DNA of 37,232 nucleotides. Origin: a virus (Duplodnaviria; Heunggongvirae; Uroviricota; Caudoviricetes). Within the stretch, counting starts at the first letter, position 1, and each line of letters begins with the position of its first letter. The position numbers and the translations under genes are program-made. This document shows positions 4,207-37,232 of this stretch, piece by piece. The stretch is from IMG/VR virus record IMGVR_UViG_2531839665_000022; one strand, 5' to 3'. The notes under the pieces are model-generated. The model was not told where the DNA came from. It was given only the letters and a program-made list of their open reading frames with translations, and made no database searches.

Positions 4207-5400
4207 TTAAACCCCTTTGACAACGTCAGCGTTGACCTGTGGAACCCCGATTTCAGCGGCCAGATTCATGGCGGCTATTACCAGGTTACTGACGGCCAGC
4301 GGATACAGCAGGCTGACCCTGTTTTTACGATGACTTCCCGGATTGCTCAGGCGGGCACGTATGGCATCCACTGCGCCGGTGTCCATAATGTCCGTCAGTT
4401 GTTTACCGGCCCGTTGCAGTTTGAACGTCAGAAATTCTTCAAGGTGATTGTCCAGAGGCAGAAGTTCGACCACCTCACAGCGCTGAACGACTTCGCGGAC
4501 TTCCATGTTGCGTTCAGACAGTTTTGTCGCCAGTTCCGGCTGGCCAATCAGCACGATGGACAGCAGCTTTTTGAAACCGGACTCCAGCTCAAAAAAGCGT
4601 TTGAGGTGTTTCAGTGTCGGAATGGGCAGACTGTGAGCCTCCTCAATCACCAGAACGTGGCTGAACCCCGCCTGGTTGCTGTCTTTCAGGACGCGATGCA
4701 ACTGGCGAAAGCGGGCGTCCTGACTGCGTCTGATGCTTTCCAGTGGTGCGATGGTACTGATAATGGCTTCGGCAATCGCTGCTGCCTTCAGAGTTTTCCC
4801 TTTCACATCGTTGTCTTCCATAGCGATGATGTATGGCTCGATAACAATCACTGGCGCATTCTCGCGGTTGATACGTTCAGTCAGGTCACGGCGCAGCGTG
4901 GATTTACCCGCACCGGACTCACCGATGACGGCCATAAACCCACCATGACGGGCTGTCTGGTACAACGCCTCACGCACGTAGCGAATGTCTGGTGTGGTGA
5001 ACACATCATCAGAACCCTGCATGGCTTCGTCGGCGAACGGGTCACGGAAAAGACCAAACGCTTTTTTGGTTGCTGGAAATAACACCTGTTTTTTGAGTAA
5101 CATATTCTCTTCCTCACTGAGGCTCGTTTTATCTGTGGTACCCGCTGTACGGGGCGTGGCCGCGCCCTGTACAGCATCAAAACTCTTCGCTGTATCAATC
5201 CCCTGACTTTCCAGCCAGGACGCAAGACGCCGGCGCACTTCTCCGGGGCTGGTGCGGGGCCACGCGTTATGATTCACAATCTGGGCCAGCGTGGCCTCAG
5301 AAACATCGACAGCTCTCGCCACCACCGCCTGTGGAATACGGGCCTCTTTCAGTTGCTGCTTCAGTACCAGCATGTTTCCCTCCTCAGTTGCCGTTAACAA
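4207..5400 (-). CDS. AAA+ ATPase, Mu B-like transposition target-capture protein
   Basis: N-terminal HTH-like segment, Walker A (VIGESGAGKST), Walker B-like (HVLVIEEAHSL); lies immediately after the transposase gene with a 17-bp overlap. Confidence 0.75.
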   Translation of the reverse strand: MLTATEEGNMLVLKQQLKEARIPQAVVARAVDVSEATLAQIVNHNAWPRTSPGEVRRRLASWLESQGIDTAKSFDAVQGAATPRTAGTTDKTSLSEEENMLLKKQVLFPATKKAFGLFRDPFADEAMQGSDDVFTTPDIRYVREALYQTARHGGFMAVIGESGAGKSTLRRDLTERINRENAPVIVIEPYIIAMEDNDVKGKTLKAAAIAEAIISTIAPLESIRRSQDARFRQLHRVLKDSNQAGFSHVLVIEEAHSLPIPTLKHLKRFFELESGFKKLLSIVLIGQPELATKLSERNMEVREVVQRCEVVELLPLDNHLEEFLTFKLQRAGKQLTDIMDTGAVDAIRARLSNPGSHRKNRVSLLYPLAVSNLVIAAMNLAAEIGVPQVNADVVKGV

Positions 5401-7153
5401 TGCTGATAACGCTGCTGCGGGCCGGCGTGGTCAGCGTGGCCATGACTTCATCCAGTGCGGCTTCCGGTACGCCGTCCGGATACTGTGCCGTTAACTGGCG
5501 GTAATGTTCCGGCGTCCAGGTAAGGCCGTCGGCGCTGAACTTATCGCGCAGGGCTTTCGCGGCCTCCACATGAGTCATGGGACGTTGTTCAGTGCGCAGC
5601 CCGCGTACGTCAGAGGCCTGACCTCGCTTCGGTATACAGGCCGGAAGTGTGGCGTCATCAATATGTTTATATGGGTCAAGCCGCCCGCCGAACGGCAGCG
5701 CCTTCGCCTTGCGTGCGGCAGCTGCATCTGCGGCGTTGTCTGTACCGGTGACCAGCGCTTCGGTTTCTTTTGCCGCCATCTGCGCCGGGGTTTCCGGCAG
5801 GGCTTTGTAACTTTCGCCAAATACCGCCGCGCTTTCAGCAAAGCCAAACTCGTTCTTTCTGACCTCTTCGACCAGGAAGAACGCCTCGTGGCCGTCCTCA
5901 CCGGTCAGAACCACCTGTGCCACATCGCTGCGCCACGGGTTACGGGTAATCATCAGTTTTTCACCGACCAGTACGCCCGGTACCGTTGATACGTCAAATT
6001 CAGTGCCCCGGAACGAGACACGAAGTTTTGGCGTGACTTTGCGGAGTTCTGGTGTCGCCACAGCCAGTTCACGGCATACCTCAACGGAAGGCGCTTTTTT
6101 CAGCTGCTCAGCAGTAATCTTCAGCCAGATATCCGTGCGGGTTTTACCGTGGCGGCTGTGAACAGCCGTGGCGTTAAAGTGGCTGCGCCATTTCGCGGCC
6201 AGCGCGTTGAGTTCTTCCAGACTGTGAACCGGCCGGAACTTCAGACCCGGCTCCAGCTTGCGTTCGATAATGTCACGCGCCTTTTCCACCTGTCCGGTGG
6301 CGCGGGCGTTATGCGGCTTGTGTGCTATCAGGTCGATGCCCAGTGAGCGGCACATGTTTTTCGTCATACCCGCGGTGTTTGCCGAGCCGGGGTCGAGATA
6401 GAGTATTTTCGGCACGCCGTGCAGCACGTCTGCGCCGCCACGCTCCTGCATGGCGTTGATAAGCACAGAACACAGGTTCTCACCGGATTCCGCACCCGTC
6501 ACATACTCAACGTAAATCCAGCCGCTGGCATGGTCGGTAATCTCGTAACTCCACACGCGGTCACTGGCGATACAGGCAAGGTTAGCGGGCTTGTTCTTGT
6601 AGAACTTCGCGCTGTCCATCACCTGCAGTCCTTTGTGTCCATTACTCAGGTAGTAAAGCGTGCAGAGCGAGGCATCAATCTGCCAGACATGATTGGGATG
6701 CAGACTGGCCACTTCGGTATGCGGCGCAGGGGCATCCAGTTGTTCCGGGTGCAGGCCATAGTTACGCAGGGCTCGGCTGATGGCATCTTCGGACAACGGG
6801 AAAAACTCACCGGTGGTTTCATCTGTTCTGCCTGCGGAGATAAAGCCATTAGCCCGCAGGGTTTCCACTGCATCCGCGATGGAATAGAGACGCTTACCGT
6901 TCTTGCGGGTGGCCTCACGCAGTGTGGCAGATATCAGCGCGGCTTCGTCGCGGGTCAGGGCGCTGCGCCCGGCATCGGCGCGTTTTTTGCGTTTATCAGT
7001 CACAGAGACCTCCTTCAGCCTGCGCAGCAGAGTGGCGCGGGACATGCCAAGTTCAGCACAGGCAGCGTCGTATATTGCACCGCGTTTACCATGCCCCGCG
7101 TCACGTGCCGCGCGGGCGACATAAACCAGTCGTTCAGTCAGGGCAGCATTCAT
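5384..7153 (-). CDS. DDE transposase, Mu A-like (integrase-core fold)
   Basis: 589 aa; N-terminal HTH (MSRATLLRRLKEV), candidate catalytic residues in the HVWQIDAS and ILYLDPGSANTAG segments, followed by the B-like ATPase. Confidence 0.8.
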   Translation of the reverse strand: MNAALTERLVYVARAARDAGHGKRGAIYDAACAELGMSRATLLRRLKEVSVTDKRKKRADAGRSALTRDEAALISATLREATRKNGKRLYSIADAVETLRANGFISAGRTDETTGEFFPLSEDAISRALRNYGLHPEQLDAPAPHTEVASLHPNHVWQIDASLCTLYYLSNGHKGLQVMDSAKFYKNKPANLACIASDRVWSYEITDHASGWIYVEYVTGAESGENLCSVLINAMQERGGADVLHGVPKILYLDPGSANTAGMTKNMCRSLGIDLIAHKPHNARATGQVEKARDIIERKLEPGLKFRPVHSLEELNALAAKWRSHFNATAVHSRHGKTRTDIWLKITAEQLKKAPSVEVCRELAVATPELRKVTPKLRVSFRGTEFDVSTVPGVLVGEKLMITRNPWRSDVAQVVLTGEDGHEAFFLVEEVRKNEFGFAESAAVFGESYKALPETPAQMAAKETEALVTGTDNAADAAAARKAKALPFGGRLDPYKHIDDATLPACIPKRGQASDVRGLRTEQRPMTHVEAAKALRDKFSADGLTWTPEHYRQLTAQYPDGVPEAALDEVMATLTTPARSSVISIVNGN

Positions 7154-7156
7154 TGG

Positions 7157-8068
7157 TTATGCCTCCAGCCCGTTAATCTGTGGCGTCGGCTCAGTCAGCC
7201 ATGAAGGCGCTGCATTGCCTGTTGGCTCGTCCGGCAGGTCAAATGTGGAGCGCAGGCTACGCGCTGTGCTTTCCAGTTGACAGACCAGGCCTGCCATGAA
7301 GTCTCTGGGGGTATCAATCATGTTTTCAGCACAATATGCGCACAGTGTCTCAAAAGCGCTGGACAGTCGAACGGCGATAGCAGATTCCGCCTCAACCGCT
7401 AATGCTGTCACTTCCGCCCGCAGCTTCTTAACCTCCTCATCAGGCTCAGGCGGCTGAATACGGGATTTCTTTTCCAGTCTGGTAGAGAGAGAATCAATTT
7501 TTTCATTTTTATCGGCGAGTACGCGCTGTTGTGCTGCGTTGGTTTCGCGCGCTTCGCGCAGGGCCTGGCGAAGTTCGCGTACTGACATGCGATCAACGTC
7601 GTCAAGCGTCAGGCCGGCAACTGTGCCGCCGTCGGCCAGTTCGGCAAGCTCTTCGTCGTCTTCTGTCATTAATTCGAAAAGTTTGGCTTTTCCCAAATGT
7701 GCCAACGTTGGCACATTTGGTTTCAGCGCCGGGGATAAGTATTTTGTCGATGCTTGCATCATTCTCACAGATGTCCGGTATGCCAGCCCCAACTCACTTT
7801 CAAGAATCTTTATAAACTCCCCGTGTGGTTCATTTTCCTTAAGGATTATCAGCCGCTTACCTGCCTCCAGCATGGCCTCAGCGCTCTGTGCCATATAAAA
7901 GCGTGCCTCATGGACAACACGATCGCGCTCATAGGGCAGACCATCGCCGAACTGTTGCATGATTTCCATGCGATGCTGTGTCATGGCGTTTAGACTGACA
8001 TTGAGATCATCCGACAGCGGTACCTCGACGTTCAGTTCAGTGCTAACCGGTGATTTGGTGCGTCCCAT
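7157..8068 (-). CDS. hypothetical early protein with coiled-coil region
   Basis: 303-aa ORF between the regulators and the transposase; acidic and coiled-coil-like middle; no domain I can name. Confidence 0.45.
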   Translation of the reverse strand: MGRTKSPVSTELNVEVPLSDDLNVSLNAMTQHRMEIMQQFGDGLPYERDRVVHEARFYMAQSAEAMLEAGKRLIILKENEPHGEFIKILESELGLAYRTSVRMMQASTKYLSPALKPNVPTLAHLGKAKLFELMTEDDEELAELADGGTVAGLTLDDVDRMSVRELRQALREARETNAAQQRVLADKNEKIDSLSTRLEKKSRIQPPEPDEEVKKLRAEVTALAVEAESAIAVRLSSAFETLCAYCAENMIDTPRDFMAGLVCQLESTARSLRSTFDLPDEPTGNAAPSWLTEPTPQINGLEA

Positions 8069-8078
8069 TGATTACTCC

Positions 8079-8387
8079 TTACAAACGACTACCTGAAATA
8101 ACACGTTGGTTGATTTCGTTAATGCGATCCTGTGCACGTGCCATCTCGTTACTGTGGGCCATGGCGATCTGCAGCAACTGGATGCCTGGTGCGAAACGCC
8201 CGTTTTCTAGTTTCAGAGCCAACCCTTCTTCAATGAGCGTGTTAAGTGCCCGGTTGATGTTTGCCGGTGATTCGTGCAGTGCAACCGCTAGTTCCCCGTT
8301 AGAAACACCGTTCAAAGCGTGGCCACGTAAGGCCTTAAGAACGCGCAAAATACGGGTACCTGAGCTTGATGTATTTGGTTTATTCAT
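8079..8387 (-). CDS. winged-helix DNA-binding protein (IclR/MarR-like HTH)
   Basis: 102 aa; RILRVLKALRGHALNGVSNGELAVALHESPANINRALNTLIEEGLAL looks like a winged-helix HTH. Confidence 0.5.
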   Translation of the reverse strand: MNKPNTSSSGTRILRVLKALRGHALNGVSNGELAVALHESPANINRALNTLIEEGLALKLENGRFAPGIQLLQIAMAHSNEMARAQDRINEINQRVISGSRL

Positions 8388-8614
8388 GACGCCTCCTTAA
8401 GGATACCGGGGGTAACTTCTTTACCTATTGCAACCGATAGATCTCGCAAAATCCGATAAGTCAAACGACCGCGAGGTAGTTCACTTTTACCAGCCCAGCG
8501 ACTGACTGCCTGGGTGACTGTTCGTGGTTCATAGCCCGCGTTAAGCGCGAACTGGCGCAAGCTACTGCCTCGTTCAACCAGCCGTGCCCGAACTTGTTGT
8601 TTGTTCATATGCAC
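8384..8614 (-). CDS. Ner-like DNA-binding protein
   Basis: 76 aa, first gene of the minus-strand early operon; SLRQFALNAGYEPRTVTQAVSRW parallels the Mu Ner HTH segment as I recall it; divergent from the repressor gene. Confidence 0.55.
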   Translation of the reverse strand: MHMNKQQVRARLVERGSSLRQFALNAGYEPRTVTQAVSRWAGKSELPRGRLTYRILRDLSVAIGKEVTPGILKEAS

Positions 8615-9174: not shown

Positions 9175-10182
9175 ATGTCTGAGCAGACCATTGAAGTTAA
9201 ACACGTTGTAGTTCACATTTTAGACAAACAACAAAATGGAGACGCTTCTGAGAGATTGAGTCCTGAAGAAGGTCTAGTTACTGAAGCCTCTCAGCGCCTT
9301 ATAAACGATATTTGTGCAAAATATGCAGGACGCACAGGTAAAGGTTATGGCTATTTTGAAGGCGATACGGATAACTATCCTATGGAACGAATGGCTGGGG
9401 ACTTTCTCGAAGGTGTTGATGATTTCTACCAAAGTTCCTGCCGAATGATGCATCACCTGACGGAACGTTCTCAGCGAGAAAACATGGCTACTGGTGGTTA
9501 TGTTCTTTTTGCAAATATCGTGATAGGACACAATGAACACCTGTTGATAGCTATTGTAAGCGCTACCATTGGGTCCACTGTCACAGATGATTTTAACATC
9601 CAAGATAGTACCTATCTTGATATTGCTAAGCTGCGTATGGCTGGGCGCATTGACTTAACCGCGTGGGAAAGTGGCGCAGAGCGCTATATCAGTTTTCTTA
9701 AGGGGCAAGGTAATGTTTCAAACTATTTTAAACAGTTCCTAGGCTGTAATGATGTCTTAATCGCCAAACGAGAGTCTGAAAAGTTACGTGACGTTTTAAA
9801 AGCATTTGCGGCAGAGAAAGGACTTGACGGCGCTGAAAAAGATGCATTTCTTAAGAGTGCGTTTGAACACTTACATGCACTAAGTAAGGCTGGTGAACCA
9901 CTTAGTCTTGAAACCCTTGTTAATGCCATTTGGCCCCAGGCTCCCGAGGAGTTATCTGGTAAACTTGCTGCTGAAGAGTTGGAGTTATCGGATGGCTTCG
10001 TTCCTGATGGTCGAGTCATTCGGGCTCTGGTATCTTTTAAAGGCAAGTCTAAATATTGGGAACTTAAGTTTGACCGGGAAGGGAAAACTGAAGGCTATAT
10101 TGATTATGATCCGGAAACAAATATTATCACCCTACGTAATGTACCTGAAGAATTTAGGGAAATGTGGATGACTGAGGTTTAA
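9175..10182 (+). CDS. NdpA/YejK-like nucleoid-associated protein homolog
   Basis: 335 aa, same length as E. coli YejK; collinear motifs as I recall YejK: (V/I)HxLDK near the N-terminus, GGYVLFANIV, and RIDLTAWESGAERYISFLKG...FKQFLG matching RIDLTEWE...RYLTFLKG...FFMDFLG. AT-rich codon usage unlike the flanking phage genes. Confidence 0.6.
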   Translation: MSEQTIEVKHVVVHILDKQQNGDASERLSPEEGLVTEASQRLINDICAKYAGRTGKGYGYFEGDTDNYPMERMAGDFLEGVDDFYQSSCRMMHHLTERSQRENMATGGYVLFANIVIGHNEHLLIAIVSATIGSTVTDDFNIQDSTYLDIAKLRMAGRIDLTAWESGAERYISFLKGQGNVSNYFKQFLGCNDVLIAKRESEKLRDVLKAFAAEKGLDGAEKDAFLKSAFEHLHALSKAGEPLSLETLVNAIWPQAPEELSGKLAAEELELSDGFVPDGRVIRALVSFKGKSKYWELKFDREGKTEGYIDYDPETNIITLRNVPEEFREMWMTEV

Positions 10183-33005: not shown

Positions 33006-33576
33006 GGTGCTACAACTCCCGCCACCGCTTGAGGGTGATATCAGTCTCAGAACGCTGGGAAGACTGGCCGGACGGCTGGATAACATCGACCTGAGCGTAC
33101 TGATGGTCGGTCTCGTCGATATTGTCGACAGTTCCGCGCTGCCATGGCTTGGCGAGCAGTTCTCGCTGTTCGGCGATGGCTGGGAACTGGCGGAATCGGA
33201 CGATGTACGCCGCATGCTTATCAAATCCGCTATCGAGCTACACCGCTATAAAGGAACACCGTGGTCAATCCGGGAAATTATCCGCCGTTTTGGCTTCGGC
33301 GAAGTGGATCTGATTGAAGGTACGGGGCAGATTGGCTATGACGGCAGACACACGTACAACGGGCTTTTCGTCCATGGTGATGCACAAGCCTGGGCAGTCT
33401 ATCGCGTCATCTTTCAACAACCCATCACTAACGATCAGGCGGCGCTGTTACGTCAGACGCTTGCTGCCTTTGCTCCGGCTCGCTGTCATCTGGCAAGTCT
33501 GGAATATCAGTCTGTCGCCATTCGATACAACAGTACTACCTGTTATGACGGTAGTTACAACCACGGGAGCAGTTAA
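32998..33576 (+). CDS. baseplate/tail protein (P2 gpI-like)
   Basis: 192 aa directly upstream of the tail fibre gene, overlapping the J-like gene by 8 bp. Confidence 0.65.
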   Translation: MAEVLQLPPPLEGDISLRTLGRLAGRLDNIDLSVLMVGLVDIVDSSALPWLGEQFSLFGDGWELAESDDVRRMLIKSAIELHRYKGTPWSIREIIRRFGFGEVDLIEGTGQIGYDGRHTYNGLFVHGDAQAWAVYRVIFQQPITNDQAALLRQTLAAFAPARCHLASLEYQSVAIRYNSTTCYDGSYNHGSS

Positions 33577-33578
33577 TT

Positions 33579-34502
33579 ATGGCAAATCTACCCGAAACCC
33601 CGCAGTGGGAAAGCGGCATCTACCAGATTGAGGTCTCTGACCCCGTTCTGGGCGGACCTGACGGAATTTCTAACCGCCAGGCTAAACAACTGGCCAGCCG
33701 AACGTCATACCTCAAACAGAAGGTCGAAAAAAGCGGAACAGACCTGGCTGCACATATCGCGGCAGTTGACCCGCATACCCAGTACGCGACGAAAGCCAGT
33801 CCGACATTCACCGGCACACCAACAGCACCTACACCTGCAAATGGTGATAACAGCAAAAAGCTGGCGACGACGGAGTTTGTGGCCAAAGCACTTGCGGCAC
33901 TTGCAGGCAGCGCCCCTGAGACACTGGATACGCTTAAAGAGCTGGCTGACGCTCTCGGTAATGATCCAAACTTTGCGACTACGGTACTGAACAAGCTGGC
34001 GGAAAAGCTGGCTAAAGACCAGAACGGCGCAGATATTCCTGAGCCTGCGCTGTTTGTCAAAAACCTTGGTTTGGGGGAAGGCTCAGCGCTGCCCGTTGGT
34101 GTGCCCGTTCCGTGGCCCTCAGCCACACCGCCAGCAGGGTGGCTGAAATGTAACGGCGCAGCATTTTCTTCTGAAATGTACCCCAATCTGGCAAAGGCTT
34201 ATCCTACAAATAAATTACCGGATTTACGGGGTGAGTTTATTCGCGGCTGGGATGACGGGCGGGGAATTGATTCAGGACGTACTCTACTTTCGTTACAGGG
34301 CGATATGTTTAAATCGCACAGTCATTACTTCCGTGAAATATGGGGTGCAAATGGACCAGATGGAACTGGTGGACCGTACATTGTCGGGGCGGATACAAAC
34401 GGTTCGAGAATAAATTTAGGCACTATAGAAACCAGTGCACCTGGTGGTTCAGAAACCCGTCCCCGTAACATTGCATTTAATTACATCGTAAGAGCCGTAT
34501 GA
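33579..34502 (+). CDS. tail fibre protein with exchangeable collar-domain tip (cassette 1 currently fused)
   Basis: 307 aa; N-terminal conserved fibre region; from codon about 165 it enters the repeated segment GEGSALPVGVPVPWPSATPPAGWLKCNGAAFSSEMYP...LPDLRGEFIRGWDDGRGID and ends with RPRNIAFNYIVRA (phage tail collar domain signature). Confidence 0.8.
   Translation: MANLPETPQWESGIYQIEVSDPVLGGPDGISNRQAKQLASRTSYLKQKVEKSGTDLAAHIAAVDPHTQYATKASPTFTGTPTAPTPANGDNSKKLATTEFVAKALAALAGSAPETLDTLKELADALGNDPNFATTVLNKLAEKLAKDQNGADIPEPALFVKNLGLGEGSALPVGVPVPWPSATPPAGWLKCNGAAFSSEMYPNLAKAYPTNKLPDLRGEFIRGWDDGRGIDSGRTLLSLQGDMFKSHSHYFREIWGANGPDGTGGPYIVGADTNGSRINLGTIETSAPGGSETRPRNIAFNYIVRAV
34054..34280 (+). repeat. 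cassette-1 recombination site plus shared 5' homology block
   Basis: 26-bp site TTGTCAAAAACCTTGGTTTGGGGGAA (34054-34079) with the perfect dyad AAACC-TT-GGTTT; left half resembles the hix/gix half-site consensus as I recall it; followed by about 200 bp nearly identical to three other copies. Confidence 0.6.
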
Positions 34503-34722
34503 AAACGTTGGTTTGGGGGAAGGCTCTGCACTGCCCGTTGGTGTGCCCGTTCCGTGGCCCTCAGCCACACCGCCAGCAGGGTGGCTGAAATGTAACGGTG
34601 CAGCATTTTCTTCTGAAATGTACCCCAAACTGGCAAAAGCCTACCCCGCGAATAAATTACCGGATTTACGGGGTGAGTTTATTCGCGGCTGGGATGACGG
34701 GCGGGGAATTGATTCAGGGCGT
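34496..34722 (+). repeat. cassette-2 recombination site plus shared 5' homology block (direct copy)
   Basis: Site CGTATGAAAACGTTGGTTTGGGGGAA (34496-34521), right half identical to site 1; overlaps the stop codon of the fused fibre gene. Confidence 0.55.
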
Positions 34723-35016
34723 TCCTTGCTTAATGCACAATCACATTCGGTTATAGATCATATTCACTATATGGAGTTATGGACTGGTGAAGGGCTTGCC
34801 GCAAATAGCACCCGTGCAGGAACAAACCCTGGTATACTGGCTACATACGGTGATGGCGGGATTGTTAAAACAGATGAGTCAGGTGTAAAAGTTCCATCTT
34901 CACTACGTGCTATTGGCACTCGTGGTGTTTATAGATTAGGTGCCAACGGAGGGAATACAGGAACGGAAAACCGCCCCCGTAATATTGCGTTTAACTATAT
35001 TGTAAGGGCTACTTAA
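34513..35016 (+). CDS. alternative tail-fibre tip cassette 2 (collar domain), not fused in this orientation
   Basis: 167 aa starting with the same about 70-aa segment as the fibre tip and ending RPRNIAFNYIVRAT, with a distinct middle; directly downstream of a hix-like site; no own RBS. Confidence 0.65.
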   Translation: MGEGSALPVGVPVPWPSATPPAGWLKCNGAAFSSEMYPKLAKAYPANKLPDLRGEFIRGWDDGRGIDSGRSLLNAQSHSVIDHIHYMELWTGEGLAANSTRAGTNPGILATYGDGGIVKTDESGVKVPSSLRAIGTRGVYRLGANGGNTGTENRPRNIAFNYIVRAT

Positions 35017-35633
35017 TGAATAATGCTGCTGCAGTACTTGATCAGAATGGTATCGCTATAACTGCAGGCGATATTACCGTTTATAACTACGATGCTGAAA
35101 ACCGTGAATATCTCTCTGCCACTGTTGAGTATCTCGCTTATGGTGTTGGAATTCCGGCTCACTCATGCATTGACGCGCCACCAGAAAAACGCCCCGGCTT
35201 CGCTGTCTGTCGTGATACCGACCAGAACATCTGGAAATATGTTCCAGACCACAGAGGCGAAACGGTTTACAGCACAGAGAATGGTAACGCTGTGCAAATC
35301 ACACAACCGGGAGATTACCCTCCTGATACGACGGTGAAACAGCCAGCTACTATCTATGATGTCTGGGATGGTGAGACCTGGGTGACAGATGCGGGACGAC
35401 AGCACGCAGCAGAACTGGAAGCTGCCGGAGCGCATCGTCAGCAACTTGAGGAACAGGCAATGGCATCTGTTGAGCTTATAAATCTCAAACTACGAGCCGG
35501 ACGCCGATTGACGCCCCAGGAGACGGAAAAACTAAACGCCGTGCTTGATTTCATAGATGTGCTTAATGCGACTGACATCAGCACTGCACCGGATATCAAC
35601 TGGCCGGAAATGCCTCTGGCAGCAGCCAGTTGA
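35016..35633 (+). CDS. tail fibre assembly protein (Mu U / P2 G-like)
   Basis: 205 aa; N-terminus MNNAAAVLDQNGIAITAGDITVYNYDAENREY typical of tail-fibre assembly chaperones. Confidence 0.7.
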   Translation: MNNAAAVLDQNGIAITAGDITVYNYDAENREYLSATVEYLAYGVGIPAHSCIDAPPEKRPGFAVCRDTDQNIWKYVPDHRGETVYSTENGNAVQITQPGDYPPDTTVKQPATIYDVWDGETWVTDAGRQHAAELEAAGAHRQQLEEQAMASVELINLKLRAGRRLTPQETEKLNAVLDFIDVLNATDISTAPDINWPEMPLAAAS

Positions 35634-35639
35634 ATATAA

Positions 35640-36116
35640 CTAAGCCGCCCTCACGATATAGTTAAATGCAATATTGCGGGGGCGGGTTTCACTACCACCT
35701 GTGTTACCAATACTTCCTCGTGAATGAAGCGTTGGTGATGGAGTCAAACTCCCTCCTGTATTTGTGGCATCAAGCCCCCTGCCTTGTGTATATGTTTTTT
35801 TGAAAATCGTAGCCAACTCCCATTCATCTTTTGTGTCATATCCATCGTTAGCTACAACAATATGGCGGTGTTTTTCCAACATCCCGTTTTGAATGCTCAA
35901 TAAAGCGCGTGCCGCATCAATTCCTCGCCCATCATCCCAGCCACGGATAAATTCTCCGCGTAAATCCGGTAATTTATTCGCGGGGTAGGCTTTTGCCAGT
36001 TTGGGGTACATTTCAGAAGAAAATGCTGCACCGTTACATTTCAGCCAGCCCGTTGGTGGTGTTGCTAAGGGCCACGGAACGGGCACACCAACGGGCAGTG
36101 CAGAGCCTTCCCCCAA
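35640..36116 (-). CDS. alternative tail-fibre tip cassette 3 (collar domain), inverted orientation
   Basis: 158 aa on the minus strand with the same shared N-terminal segment and C-terminal RPRNIAFNYIVRAA, distinct middle. Confidence 0.65.
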   Translation of the reverse strand: MGEGSALPVGVPVPWPLATPPTGWLKCNGAAFSSEMYPKLAKAYPANKLPDLRGEFIRGWDDGRGIDAARALLSIQNGMLEKHRHIVVANDGYDTKDEWELATIFKKTYTQGRGLDATNTGGSLTPSPTLHSRGSIGNTGGSETRPRNIAFNYIVRAA

Positions 36117-36133
36117 ACCAACGTTTCTATGCC
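35907..36133 (-). repeat. cassette-3 recombination site plus shared homology block (inverted copy)
   Basis: Reverse complement of 36108-36133 is GGCATAGAAACGTTGGTTTGGGGGAA; inverted relative to sites 1 and 2. Confidence 0.55.
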
Positions 36134-36588
36134 GCTCTTACGATGTAATTAAATGCAATATTACGCGGACGAGCTGATACATAAGCCCACCAGTCATATT
36201 TTTGTGCACCTTTACTGGATGCATCAAATATCCACTTTTTGCCATTTATGGCCCCCCATTGATTAGAGCTTAAAGTGTCACCAAATCCGTATTGTGTTGA
36301 GCTGAGTGAACTGATATCCCCAGTATCATTATCATCAAAACCGGAGACGATAGTGCCTTCCTGAAATGAAAGTATCTCTCGTCCTGCATCAATACCTCGT
36401 CCGTCATCCCAGCCACGAATAAACTCACCCCGTAAATCCGGTAATTTATTCGCGGGGTAGGCTTTTGCCAGTTTGGGGTACATTTCAGAAGAAAATGCTG
36501 CGCCGTTACATTTCAGCCACCCTGCTGGCGGTGTGGCTGAGGGCCACGGAACGGGCACACCAACGGGCAGCGCTGAGCCTTCCCCCAA
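36127..36588 (-). CDS. alternative tail-fibre tip cassette 4 (collar domain), inverted orientation
   Basis: 153 aa on the minus strand with the same shared N-terminal segment and C-terminal RPRNIAFNYIVRAA, distinct middle. Confidence 0.65.
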   Translation of the reverse strand: MGEGSALPVGVPVPWPSATPPAGWLKCNGAAFSSEMYPKLAKAYPANKLPDLRGEFIRGWDDGRGIDAGREILSFQEGTIVSGFDDNDTGDISSLSSTQYGFGDTLSSNQWGAINGKKWIFDASSKGAQKYDWWAYVSARPRNIAFNYIVRAA

Positions 36589-36605
36589 ACCAACGTTTTC
36601 GTCTT
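36379..36605 (-). repeat. cassette-4 recombination site plus shared homology block (inverted copy)
   Basis: Reverse complement of 36580-36605 is AAGACGAAAACGTTGGTTTGGGGGAA; inverted relative to sites 1 and 2; 55 bp upstream of the invertase gene. Confidence 0.55.
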
Positions 36606-36659
36606 AACTCCCACCTATACCAGCTATGTATTTTTAACAAAACAAAGAGGATATTTTTC

Positions 36660-37232
36660 ATGCAAATTGGCTACATTCGTGTGTCAACAAATGACCAGAA
36701 TACAGATTTACAACGAAACGCACTGAACTGCGCAGGATGTGAACTGATTTTTGAGGATAAAATCAGCGGAACAAAGTCAGCCCGACCGGGATTGAAAAAG
36801 CTGCTCAGAACGTTATCAGAAGGAGATACGCTCGTTGTCTGGAAGCTGGACAGGCTGGGCAGAAGCATGAAACACCTCATCACTCTTATTGAGGAACTGC
36901 GGGAAAAAGGGGTTAACTTCCGTAGTCTTACAGACAGCATTGATACGTCAACACCCATGGGACGTTTCTTTTTTCACGTCATGGGGGCTTTAGCGGAAAT
37001 GGAGCGTGAATTAATAGTTGAACGAACACTGGCCGGACTTGAAGCAGCACGTGCACAGGGGCGTATTGGTGGACGTCGTCCGAAACTGACAAAAGAGCAA
37101 CATGAACAAATAGCAAGGCTGATCAAAAATGGCTATAGCAGGAAACAGTTGGCAATTATTTACGATATCGGTATATCGACGATTTATCGTTATCACCCTG
37201 TAGAGGAACTTCAAACTCAAGCTGAGTTGTAA
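36660..37232 (+). CDS. serine-recombinase DNA invertase (Gin/Hin/Cin/Pin family)
   Basis: 190 aa from ATG 36660; N-terminal catalytic motif MQIGYIRVSTNDQNTDLQ with the conserved serine, resolvase-type core (VVWKLDRLGRS), C-terminal HTH (GYSRKQLAIIYDIGISTIYRY); adjacent to the cassette array. Confidence 0.9.
   Translation: MQIGYIRVSTNDQNTDLQRNALNCAGCELIFEDKISGTKSARPGLKKLLRTLSEGDTLVVWKLDRLGRSMKHLITLIEELREKGVNFRSLTDSIDTSTPMGRFFFHVMGALAEMERELIVERTLAGLEAARAQGRIGGRRPKLTKEQHEQIARLIKNGYSRKQLAIIYDIGISTIYRYHPVEELQTQAEL

Follow-up and report, generated by a model that had tools for sequence, protein, structure and literature searches.

The right end of IMG/VR virus record IMGVR_UViG_2531839665_000022, a stretch of 37,232 nucleotides from a tailed phage that was analysed at its full length and is called the window below, carries at positions 34054-37232 a multiple DNA inversion module of the Min type, first known from plasmid p15B. 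It contains four crossover sites, four cassettes coding for alternative tail-fibre tips (c1 to c4), a serine invertase and one single gene for a tail-fibre assembly protein (Tfa), which is itself invertible. We favour, with reasonable though not high confidence, the reading that this Tfa is generic for tips of the collar class and serves all four of them, that in six of 12 inversion isomers it shares a transcript with the fibre gene, and that it has no cis route to expression in the other six. A single invertible chaperone gene is apparently a general property of the Min-type family that has gone undiscussed: the papers that we found describe such invertons, and the question of the single chaperone is not taken up in them.

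Anatomy of the module

The C-terminal 140 amino acids of the tail fibre and three separate open reading frame (ORF) fragments all match the Pfam Phage tail collar domain (PF07484), with E-values of about 1e-14 each. Cassette c1 (34080-34502, plus strand; E = 1.1e-14) is the tip expressed in this isomer. Cassette c2 (34522-35016, in an ORF fragment at 34513-35016, plus strand; E = 2.1e-14) is silent here and always lies directly 5' of Tfa. The other two are encoded on the minus strand: c3 (35640-36107, ORF 35640-36116; E = 3.9e-14), which is convergent with Tfa and thus in what we call the orphan position, and c4 (36127-36579, ORF 36127-36588; E = 1.8e-14). When aligned, the four tips share an invariant N-terminal part of ~70 amino acids and an invariant C-terminus, RPRNIAFNYIVRA, with a variable insert of 60-90 amino acids between the two. 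They are homologous to the tip of T4 gp37 (2XGF), the terminal NIAFNYIVR strand included, and also to short tail fibres. An H-x-H motif follows the collar part immediately in c1 (SHSH), c2 (DHIH) and c3 (KHRH) and is absent from c4; judging from its sequence, the c4 insert may have a different fold, or may lack the metal site of gp37-type tips.

Every cassette opens with a 26-bp Gin/Pin-type site made of 12 bp, TT and GGTTTGGGGGAA. A pattern search with up to three mismatches found exactly four such sites in the 37 kb, for a chance expectation of 0. Site s1 (34054-34079, plus strand; TTGTCAAAAACC TT GGTTTGGGGGAA) lies within the fibre ORF and s2 (34496-34521, plus strand; CGTATGAAAACG TT GGTTTGGGGGAA) overlaps the c1 stop codon; s3 (36108-36133, minus strand; GGCATAGAAACG TT GGTTTGGGGGAA when read on that strand) overlaps the c4 stop codon, and s4 (36580-36605, minus strand) bounds the invertible region on the right and stays fixed. 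The sequence AAACSTTGGTTTGGGGGAA is common to the four sites, two of which are on each strand, in the inverted orientation typical of the Din family. The sites fit the Din-family 26-bp consensus and the site of the EC958 prophage Phi2 (Table 3 in PMC4134206), and inversion at that same sequence was seen in PacBio reads of EC958 (PMC4134206). The frame GGT TTG GGG GAA is the same at all sites, so that each of the cassettes can be joined in phase to the constant stem, which is encoded by the invariant 5' portion of the fibre gene (33579-34053, plus strand; PHROG 3100 tail fibre, E = 2e-131). The enzyme expected to recombine them is encoded at 36660-37232 (plus strand; 190 amino acids), its stop codon being the end of the window. 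It belongs to the Gin/Pin/Min family of serine DNA invertases (PF00239, E = 1.6e-51; PF02796, E = 1.3e-13; PHROG 125 DNA invertase, E = 6e-98) and has the Din-family build, namely a resolvase catalytic domain and a C-terminal helix-turn-helix. With more than two sites, overlapping invertible segments, four in-frame 3' ends and 12 isomers, the module belongs to the Min-type multiple-inversion family, a known type that is widespread among prophages of E. coli and P1-like plasmids. An ATG at 34499-34501 overlaps the c1 stop codon (ATGA) and opens a frame of ~29 codons that runs through s2, in a phase other than that of c2; it probably has no significance, though placed where termination-reinitiation could occur.

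The Tfa gene (35016-35633, plus strand; 205 amino acids) was recognised by PF02413 (E = 9.6e-26; 90.9 bits against a curated cut-off of 22.1) and PHROG 105 (E = 7e-83). Its ATG overlaps the stop codon of c2 (TAATG at 35014-35018) and an AAGGG Shine-Dalgarno sequence lies 7 nt upstream, so arranged that Tfa would be translationally coupled to c2 while also having a ribosome-binding site of its own. The initial annotation had seen in this gene the only relative of Mu U in the block, following c2, and had noted that c3 and c4 lack a downstream partner ORF. Both observations stand. A profile search of all six frames found no other Tfa-family ORF in the whole window, and there is no space for a partner gene downstream of c3 or c4 because c3 ends 6 nt from the Tfa stop codon, on the opposite strand, and c4 ends within s3, the crossover site of c3. 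A chaperone hidden on the minus strand was considered and rejected: besides the lack of room, the minus-strand ORFs within Tfa (93, 53 and 49 amino acids) have no PHROG match, a comparison of 122 Tfa genes showed no conservation of such antisense open stretches, and the NCBI (PGAP) annotation of near-identical loci contains no extra gene. In this isomer Tfa is directly downstream of c2 and not of c1, c3 or c4; in no isomer is it so placed behind c3. The expressed tip c1 thus lacks a chaperone of its own as well, a point beyond the initial annotation, and the ratio is one Tfa per four tips, not per two.

The consequences of inversion were enumerated under the rule that sites recombine only in inverted orientation. 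Twelve isomers can be reached, with Tfa in sense to the fibre gene in six and antisense in six; co-transcription with the fibre is confined to the former because Tfa travels on the c2-c3 invertible segment. The two isomers that express c2 both have Tfa in sense and the two that express c3 both have it antisense, while c1 and c4 are expressed in four isomers each, two with Tfa in sense and two with Tfa antisense, since two successive inversions bring Tfa into the sense position behind c4 or c1 in half of the isomers of each. Only for c3 is the antisense state obligatory, there being no site between it and Tfa. We considered, and rejected, a cryptic fifth crossover site at this place by which Tfa could flip alone, as the search with up to three mismatches yielded the four sites only. 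The conserved 3' ends of c2 (34966-35015) and c3 (35641-35690) form a 50-nt inverted repeat, 86% identical, around Tfa. Rare homologous recombination at this repeat would re-orient Tfa behind c3; no window-type Tfa so re-oriented was seen in any locus examined.

Layout of related loci and proposed recognition of tips by Tfa

Related loci (~190) were fetched from IMG/VR and RefSeq via their tips rather than via Tfa, annotated, and clustered into 88 groups. All loci with at least three cassettes (3-9), be their background Mu-like, P2-like or that of a P1-like phage-plasmid, have exactly one Tfa each, located between two convergent cassettes. One-cassette arms have their own Tfa behind the tip, the usual two-arm pattern being C> T> <T' V. 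A single Tfa for several tips is not peculiar to this phage, then, and is the standard Min-type layout. In a Salmonella P1-like phage-plasmid, for example, 7-8 cassettes accompany one Tfa, with the same 6-nt convergent spacing and a window-type spacer before the invertase. That spacer (36606-36659, plus strand), which separates the last site from the invertase start, is conserved. When ~100 loci were compared, two clearly separate sequence classes of the spacer before the invertase ATG emerged: all multi-cassette (Min-type) loci, whether Mu-, P2- or P1-like, share the one, and two-arm (Pin/e14-type) loci the other. Plasmid matches to the module comprised 221 records, mostly non-mobilizable replicons, those listed being 91-102 kb in size; the best of them reached 60% query coverage and 88% nucleotide identity with equal gene order, and p15B itself was not identified among the plasmids. 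The exact c2-Tfa-c3 unit occurs in 19 of 5426 complete E. coli genomes and parts of the module in 2064 of them.

These loci also provide natural isomers. The window's four cassettes plus one more are arranged as F-c3> <Tfa <c2 <c4 <x <c1 in L009/L054; L005 has F-c4> c3> <Tfa <c2, L007 has F-c3> <Tfa <c2 followed by further cassettes, and L004 has c4> x> c2> Tfa>. Across these different isomeric states the c2-Tfa-c3 unit remains colinear (L001-L009, 95.6-99.6% identity). It had been supposed in the initial annotation that inversion may leave the chaperone antisense to late transcription; six of the enumerated isomers and the natural prophage isomers L005-L009, L091 and L096 bear this out. That inversion occurs in the module is indicated indirectly, by related prophages that differ in isomeric state and by published long-read and PCR data on homologous loci, such as the three-site prophage shufflon of enteropathogenic E. 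coli, for which four co-existing variants were described (Goldberg et al., PMC4272514). On one IMG/VR contig (L101 and L162) the unit C85> T219> <c3 occurs twice, as a palindrome beside the invertase; the doubling may be real, or it may have arisen during assembly from a mixture of inversion isomers.

How one chaperone could assist tips with different inserts was addressed with 82 unique tip/Tfa pairs. Tfa identity and insert identity were only loosely related (Spearman 0.18), and Tfa proteins at least 90% identical accompanied inserts less than 35% identical in 158 pairs. The window-type N-terminal domain is present in all 114 unique Tfas located directly behind collar tips (median identity 59%) and missing from 67 of the 69 Tfa-family ORFs that are not behind a collar tip, 51 of these 67 retaining similarity in the C-terminal domain. 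At the sequence level, therefore, Tfa has a two-module build, with an N-domain specific for the fibre type and a C-domain that is family-wide. On the side of the tips, the NIAFNYIVR motif ends 156 of 160 cassettes. According to the work of North et al. (2019), as it is summarised in PMC9608196, the N-domain binds the C-terminal region of the fibre and the conserved C-domain drives trimerisation; furthermore, lambda Tfa substitutes for T4 gp38 in the folding of gp37 (PMC9659904). Under this model the chaperone would read the class of the tip and not its insert, since the N-domain is independent of the insert. That Tfa is generic for collar tips and indifferent to the receptor-binding insert is well supported by these comparisons. 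The features recognised would be those common to all cassettes, namely the collar part of ~70 amino acids and the RPRNIAFNYIVRA C-terminus. One Tfa gene could plausibly serve four tips, and one would suffice for the module because this Tfa is of a collar-specific subclass whose fibre-binding N-domain does not co-vary with the insert.

Possible need for Tfa and its possible supply in the antisense isomers

Outside multi-cassette loci, tips of the kinds found in the window are regularly accompanied by Tfa. Tips of the c3 type, with inserts 96-97% identical, have a Tfa of the same subclass directly downstream in the two-arm invertons L013-L022, and the Tfa genes behind these tips are under purifying selection (ratio of non-synonymous to synonymous polymorphism, pN/pS, 0.23). 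Tips like c1 and c4 are also found with Tfa in one-cassette contexts (L042, L099 and L100). More generally, Tfa lies directly downstream in 75 of 90 judgeable tips from ~60 species of Enterobacterales; the tips without it are the inner cassettes of multi-cassette loci and those of four related P2-like clusters.

For the six antisense isomers, we could find no cis route to Tfa, because no promoter, second Tfa or extra site was found. No sigma-70-like promoter was detected on the plus strand of 33400-37232, and the single match on the minus strand lies inside c2 and is directed away from Tfa. No terminator was found between the cassettes of the block. The scan is blind to activator-dependent late promoters. 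The favoured reading can be put as follows. The invertase would recombine the four 26-bp sites and so place any of the four collar-domain cassettes (T4 gp37/lambda Stf type) on the constant stem, with the Tfa gene carried along on the c2-c3 segment; antisense isomers would then rely on another prophage for collar-class Tfa in trans, on folding without chaperone at lower efficiency, or on an undetected promoter. Collar-class Tfa genes, e14 tfaE included, are detectable at the DNA level in 2337 of 5426 E. coli genomes.

A different possibility is that Tfa is expressed independently of its orientation, and hence in all 12 isomers, from a promoter inside c2 or from a leftward promoter in the fixed flank by the invertase. 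Three features speak for it: the purifying selection on c3 in an obligately antisense position (see below), the maintenance of the embedded-Tfa layout in three unrelated phage backgrounds, and the spacer upstream of the invertase, which is specific to multi-cassette loci and absent from two-arm loci. However, manual inspection of this spacer revealed poor -10/-35 matches only, the promoter scan was negative on the plus strand and its one minus-strand match points the wrong way, and the TAATG overlap with the c2 stop codon is typical of a gene read from the upstream fibre transcript. We consider expression in every orientation unlikely. The initial annotation had proposed, as one of two alternatives, a generic chaperone expressed independently; the generic character agrees with the independence of Tfa sequence from the insert, whereas the independent expression finds no sigma-70-like promoter on the strand where it would be needed.

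Several observations weigh against the favoured reading. First, four P2-like clusters (L217, L233, L258 and L262) have a collar-tipped fibre and no Tfa within 8 kb, and the tip insert of one of them (L258, Rahnella laticis) is clearly of the c4 type. The four come from Rahnella contaminans, R. laticis and two metagenome-assembled genomes; their collar ORFs are at ~7450-8480 of each locus, in the order gpI, collar-tipped fibre (~330 amino acids), tail sheath. Tfa may thus not be strictly required for collar tips, and chaperone-free or trans-served collar tips are possible. Second, c3 is intact in 13 of the 13 loci where it is convergent with Tfa, its insert differs from that of L001 by 18 synonymous and four non-synonymous changes (p ~1e-8), and the two c3 lineages seen in the orphan position are mutual closest relatives (90% nucleotide identity). 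This pattern of strong purifying selection suggests that c3-tipped fibres work, and hence that they have some source of Tfa or are independent of it. Third, even sense isomers other than those expressing c2 need transcription through 0.5-1.5 kb of untranslated cassette, where Rho-dependent polarity could lower the level of Tfa.

The Tfa-less clusters would suit a chaperone dedicated to c2, with the tips of c1, c3 and c4 folding without Tfa. So would the presence of a c4-type tip in one of these clusters, the lack in c4 of the H-x-H motif of the other tips, and the coupling and constant linkage of Tfa to c2. Yet c3-type tips in two-arm invertons precede a same-subclass Tfa of their own that is kept by selection, c1-like and c4-like tips are accompanied by Tfa when they stand in one-cassette contexts, and the N-domain of Tfa does not co-vary with the insert; a Tfa restricted to c2 thus appears quite improbable to us. 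By the same token, the second alternative of the initial annotation, that collar tips fold without the chaperone, fails as a general rule, because one-cassette arms almost always carry Tfa, behind c3-type tips too; in view of the four Tfa-less P2-like loci, some collar tips may do so.

The conservation of c3 bears on yet another explanation, in which the layout is a frozen accident: an ancestral two-arm arrangement, c>T> <T'<c', would have lost one Tfa and amplified its cassettes, and the antisense isomers would be fibre-less and non-infectious, a price accepted for bet-hedging. The gene order is most simply read in this way, which also agrees with the failure to find a cis expression route. 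Tfa homologues are, moreover, essential for fibre assembly in Mu and P2. The same is true of the T4 homologue (PMC9659904). Against such dead ends, c3 would never be useful and is nevertheless intact and under purifying selection, although part of that selection may act in other positions after recombination, as in L023, where c3 is not in the orphan position. Near-identical c3 (99-100% nucleotide identity) also occurs beside a different Tfa in L011, L012 and L032. The loss of half of the isomers would in addition be a heavy cost for so widely conserved a layout, and we find this explanation doubtful.

Returning to the favoured reading, candidate explanations for the antisense isomers are an activator-dependent promoter, Tfa supplied in trans, chaperone-independent folding, and selection on cassettes while in other positions. 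Because c3 is obligately antisense to Tfa and under purifying selection, there is also room for a more speculative view, to which we give a low probability: Min-type shufflons may supply the single chaperone in every isomer by an undescribed route, or the orientation of Tfa may be a second switch. In the first form, an activator-dependent promoter would lie within the cassette that precedes Tfa, or the conserved invertase-side spacer would contain a promoter directed leftward. In the second, if Tfa, like that of Mu, remains attached to the tip, fibres with c1 or c4 would be either capped with Tfa or uncapped and would differ in receptor behaviour.

Phage context and known systems

The window is a Mu-like transposable prophage. 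Its genes include those for an rve-type transposase, an AAA_22 MuB-like ATPase, a Mu portal, Mu gp27 and a contractile sheath. At its right end a gpI-like baseplate gene (PF09684) is followed by the tail-fibre gene (33579-34502, plus strand; 307 amino acids as expressed, from the ORF list), the invertible block and the serine invertase. The transposition genes are on the minus strand (window 4207-8068, with the rve transposase at 5384-7153 and the AAA_22 ATPase at 4207-5400), opposite to the structural genes, whereas in Mu both are co-oriented. A full-length homologue of PF04245, a 37-kDa nucleoid-associated protein, is encoded at 9175-10182 (plus strand; E = 1e-80), with the early region, read leftward, on one side and the late genes, read rightward, on the other.

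The closest known relative in organisation is the Min multiple DNA inversion system of plasmid p15B, reportedly described by Sandmeier, Iida and Arber in 1990-1992; the Min-type organisation has been known since about 1990. With Min and the P1-like phage-plasmids the module shares a Din-family serine invertase, more than two 26-bp sites and overlapping invertible segments, as well as the joining of alternative 3' ends to an unchanging 5' portion of the fibre gene. The likeness to P1-like plasmids extends to ~88% nucleotide identity and to the combination of 7-8 collar cassettes, one Tfa, the 6-nt spacing and the same spacer. It differs from p15B in having four sites and 12 isomers, where p15B has six sites and 240 isomers, and in being located at the right end of a Mu-like phage with a short fibre of 307 amino acids instead of in a P1-type plasmid prophage.

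The G segment of Mu (Gin) and the C segment of P1 (Cin) resemble the module in that the invertase adjoins the invertible segment, the C-terminal part of the fibre is swapped and the tip is followed by a Tfa-family chaperone (U); the order baseplate, fibre, Tfa and invertase at the right genome end is also that of Mu. Both, however, have two sites and two arms with a chaperone for each arm (S-U and S'-U'). Furthermore, Mu tips are not of the collar type, the only match to Mu S being stem residues 137-167 of the window fibre, upstream of the collar tip, and in a sequence search the window Tfa matched no solved structure, the Mu Tfa complex 5YVQ included. The P segment of e14 (Pin) and other two-arm collar invertons have collar tips followed by a Tfa ~60% identical to that of the window; e14 tfaE is 65% identical to the window gene at the nucleotide level. 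These invertons share the right half-site with the module, and their invertase is related to its own. They differ in having two arms with their own Tfa each (C> T> <T) and the other class of spacer before the invertase.

In the T4 gp37-gp38 and lambda Stf-Tfa family (PMC9659904), the tips are homologous to those of the window, NIAFNYIVR included, an assembly protein of 184-207 amino acids is encoded directly downstream, receptor specificity resides in an insert of 30-70 amino acids, and chaperones can function across systems, as lambda Tfa does for gp38. In that family tip and chaperone are present 1:1 and without inversion, in contrast to four tips and one invertible chaperone gene here. The shufflon of R64 and other IncI plasmids (Rci, PilV) likewise uses multiple invertible segments to produce alternative C-termini of an adhesin. 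It differs in its recombinase, a tyrosine recombinase acting on 19-bp sfx sites, in its target, which is a pilus adhesin, and in having no chaperone gene. The word shufflon was applied to a related prophage locus by Goldberg et al. (PMC4272514).

Tips and chaperones are the parts that are swapped when phages and tailocins are re-targeted. A subclass of Tfa that is indifferent to the insert implies that collar tips can be exchanged with the chaperone left unchanged, and natural shufflons appear to exploit just such exchange. The fate of the half of the isomers in which the chaperone gene is inverted, those expressing c3 above all, bears on the cost and efficiency of bet-hedging switches.

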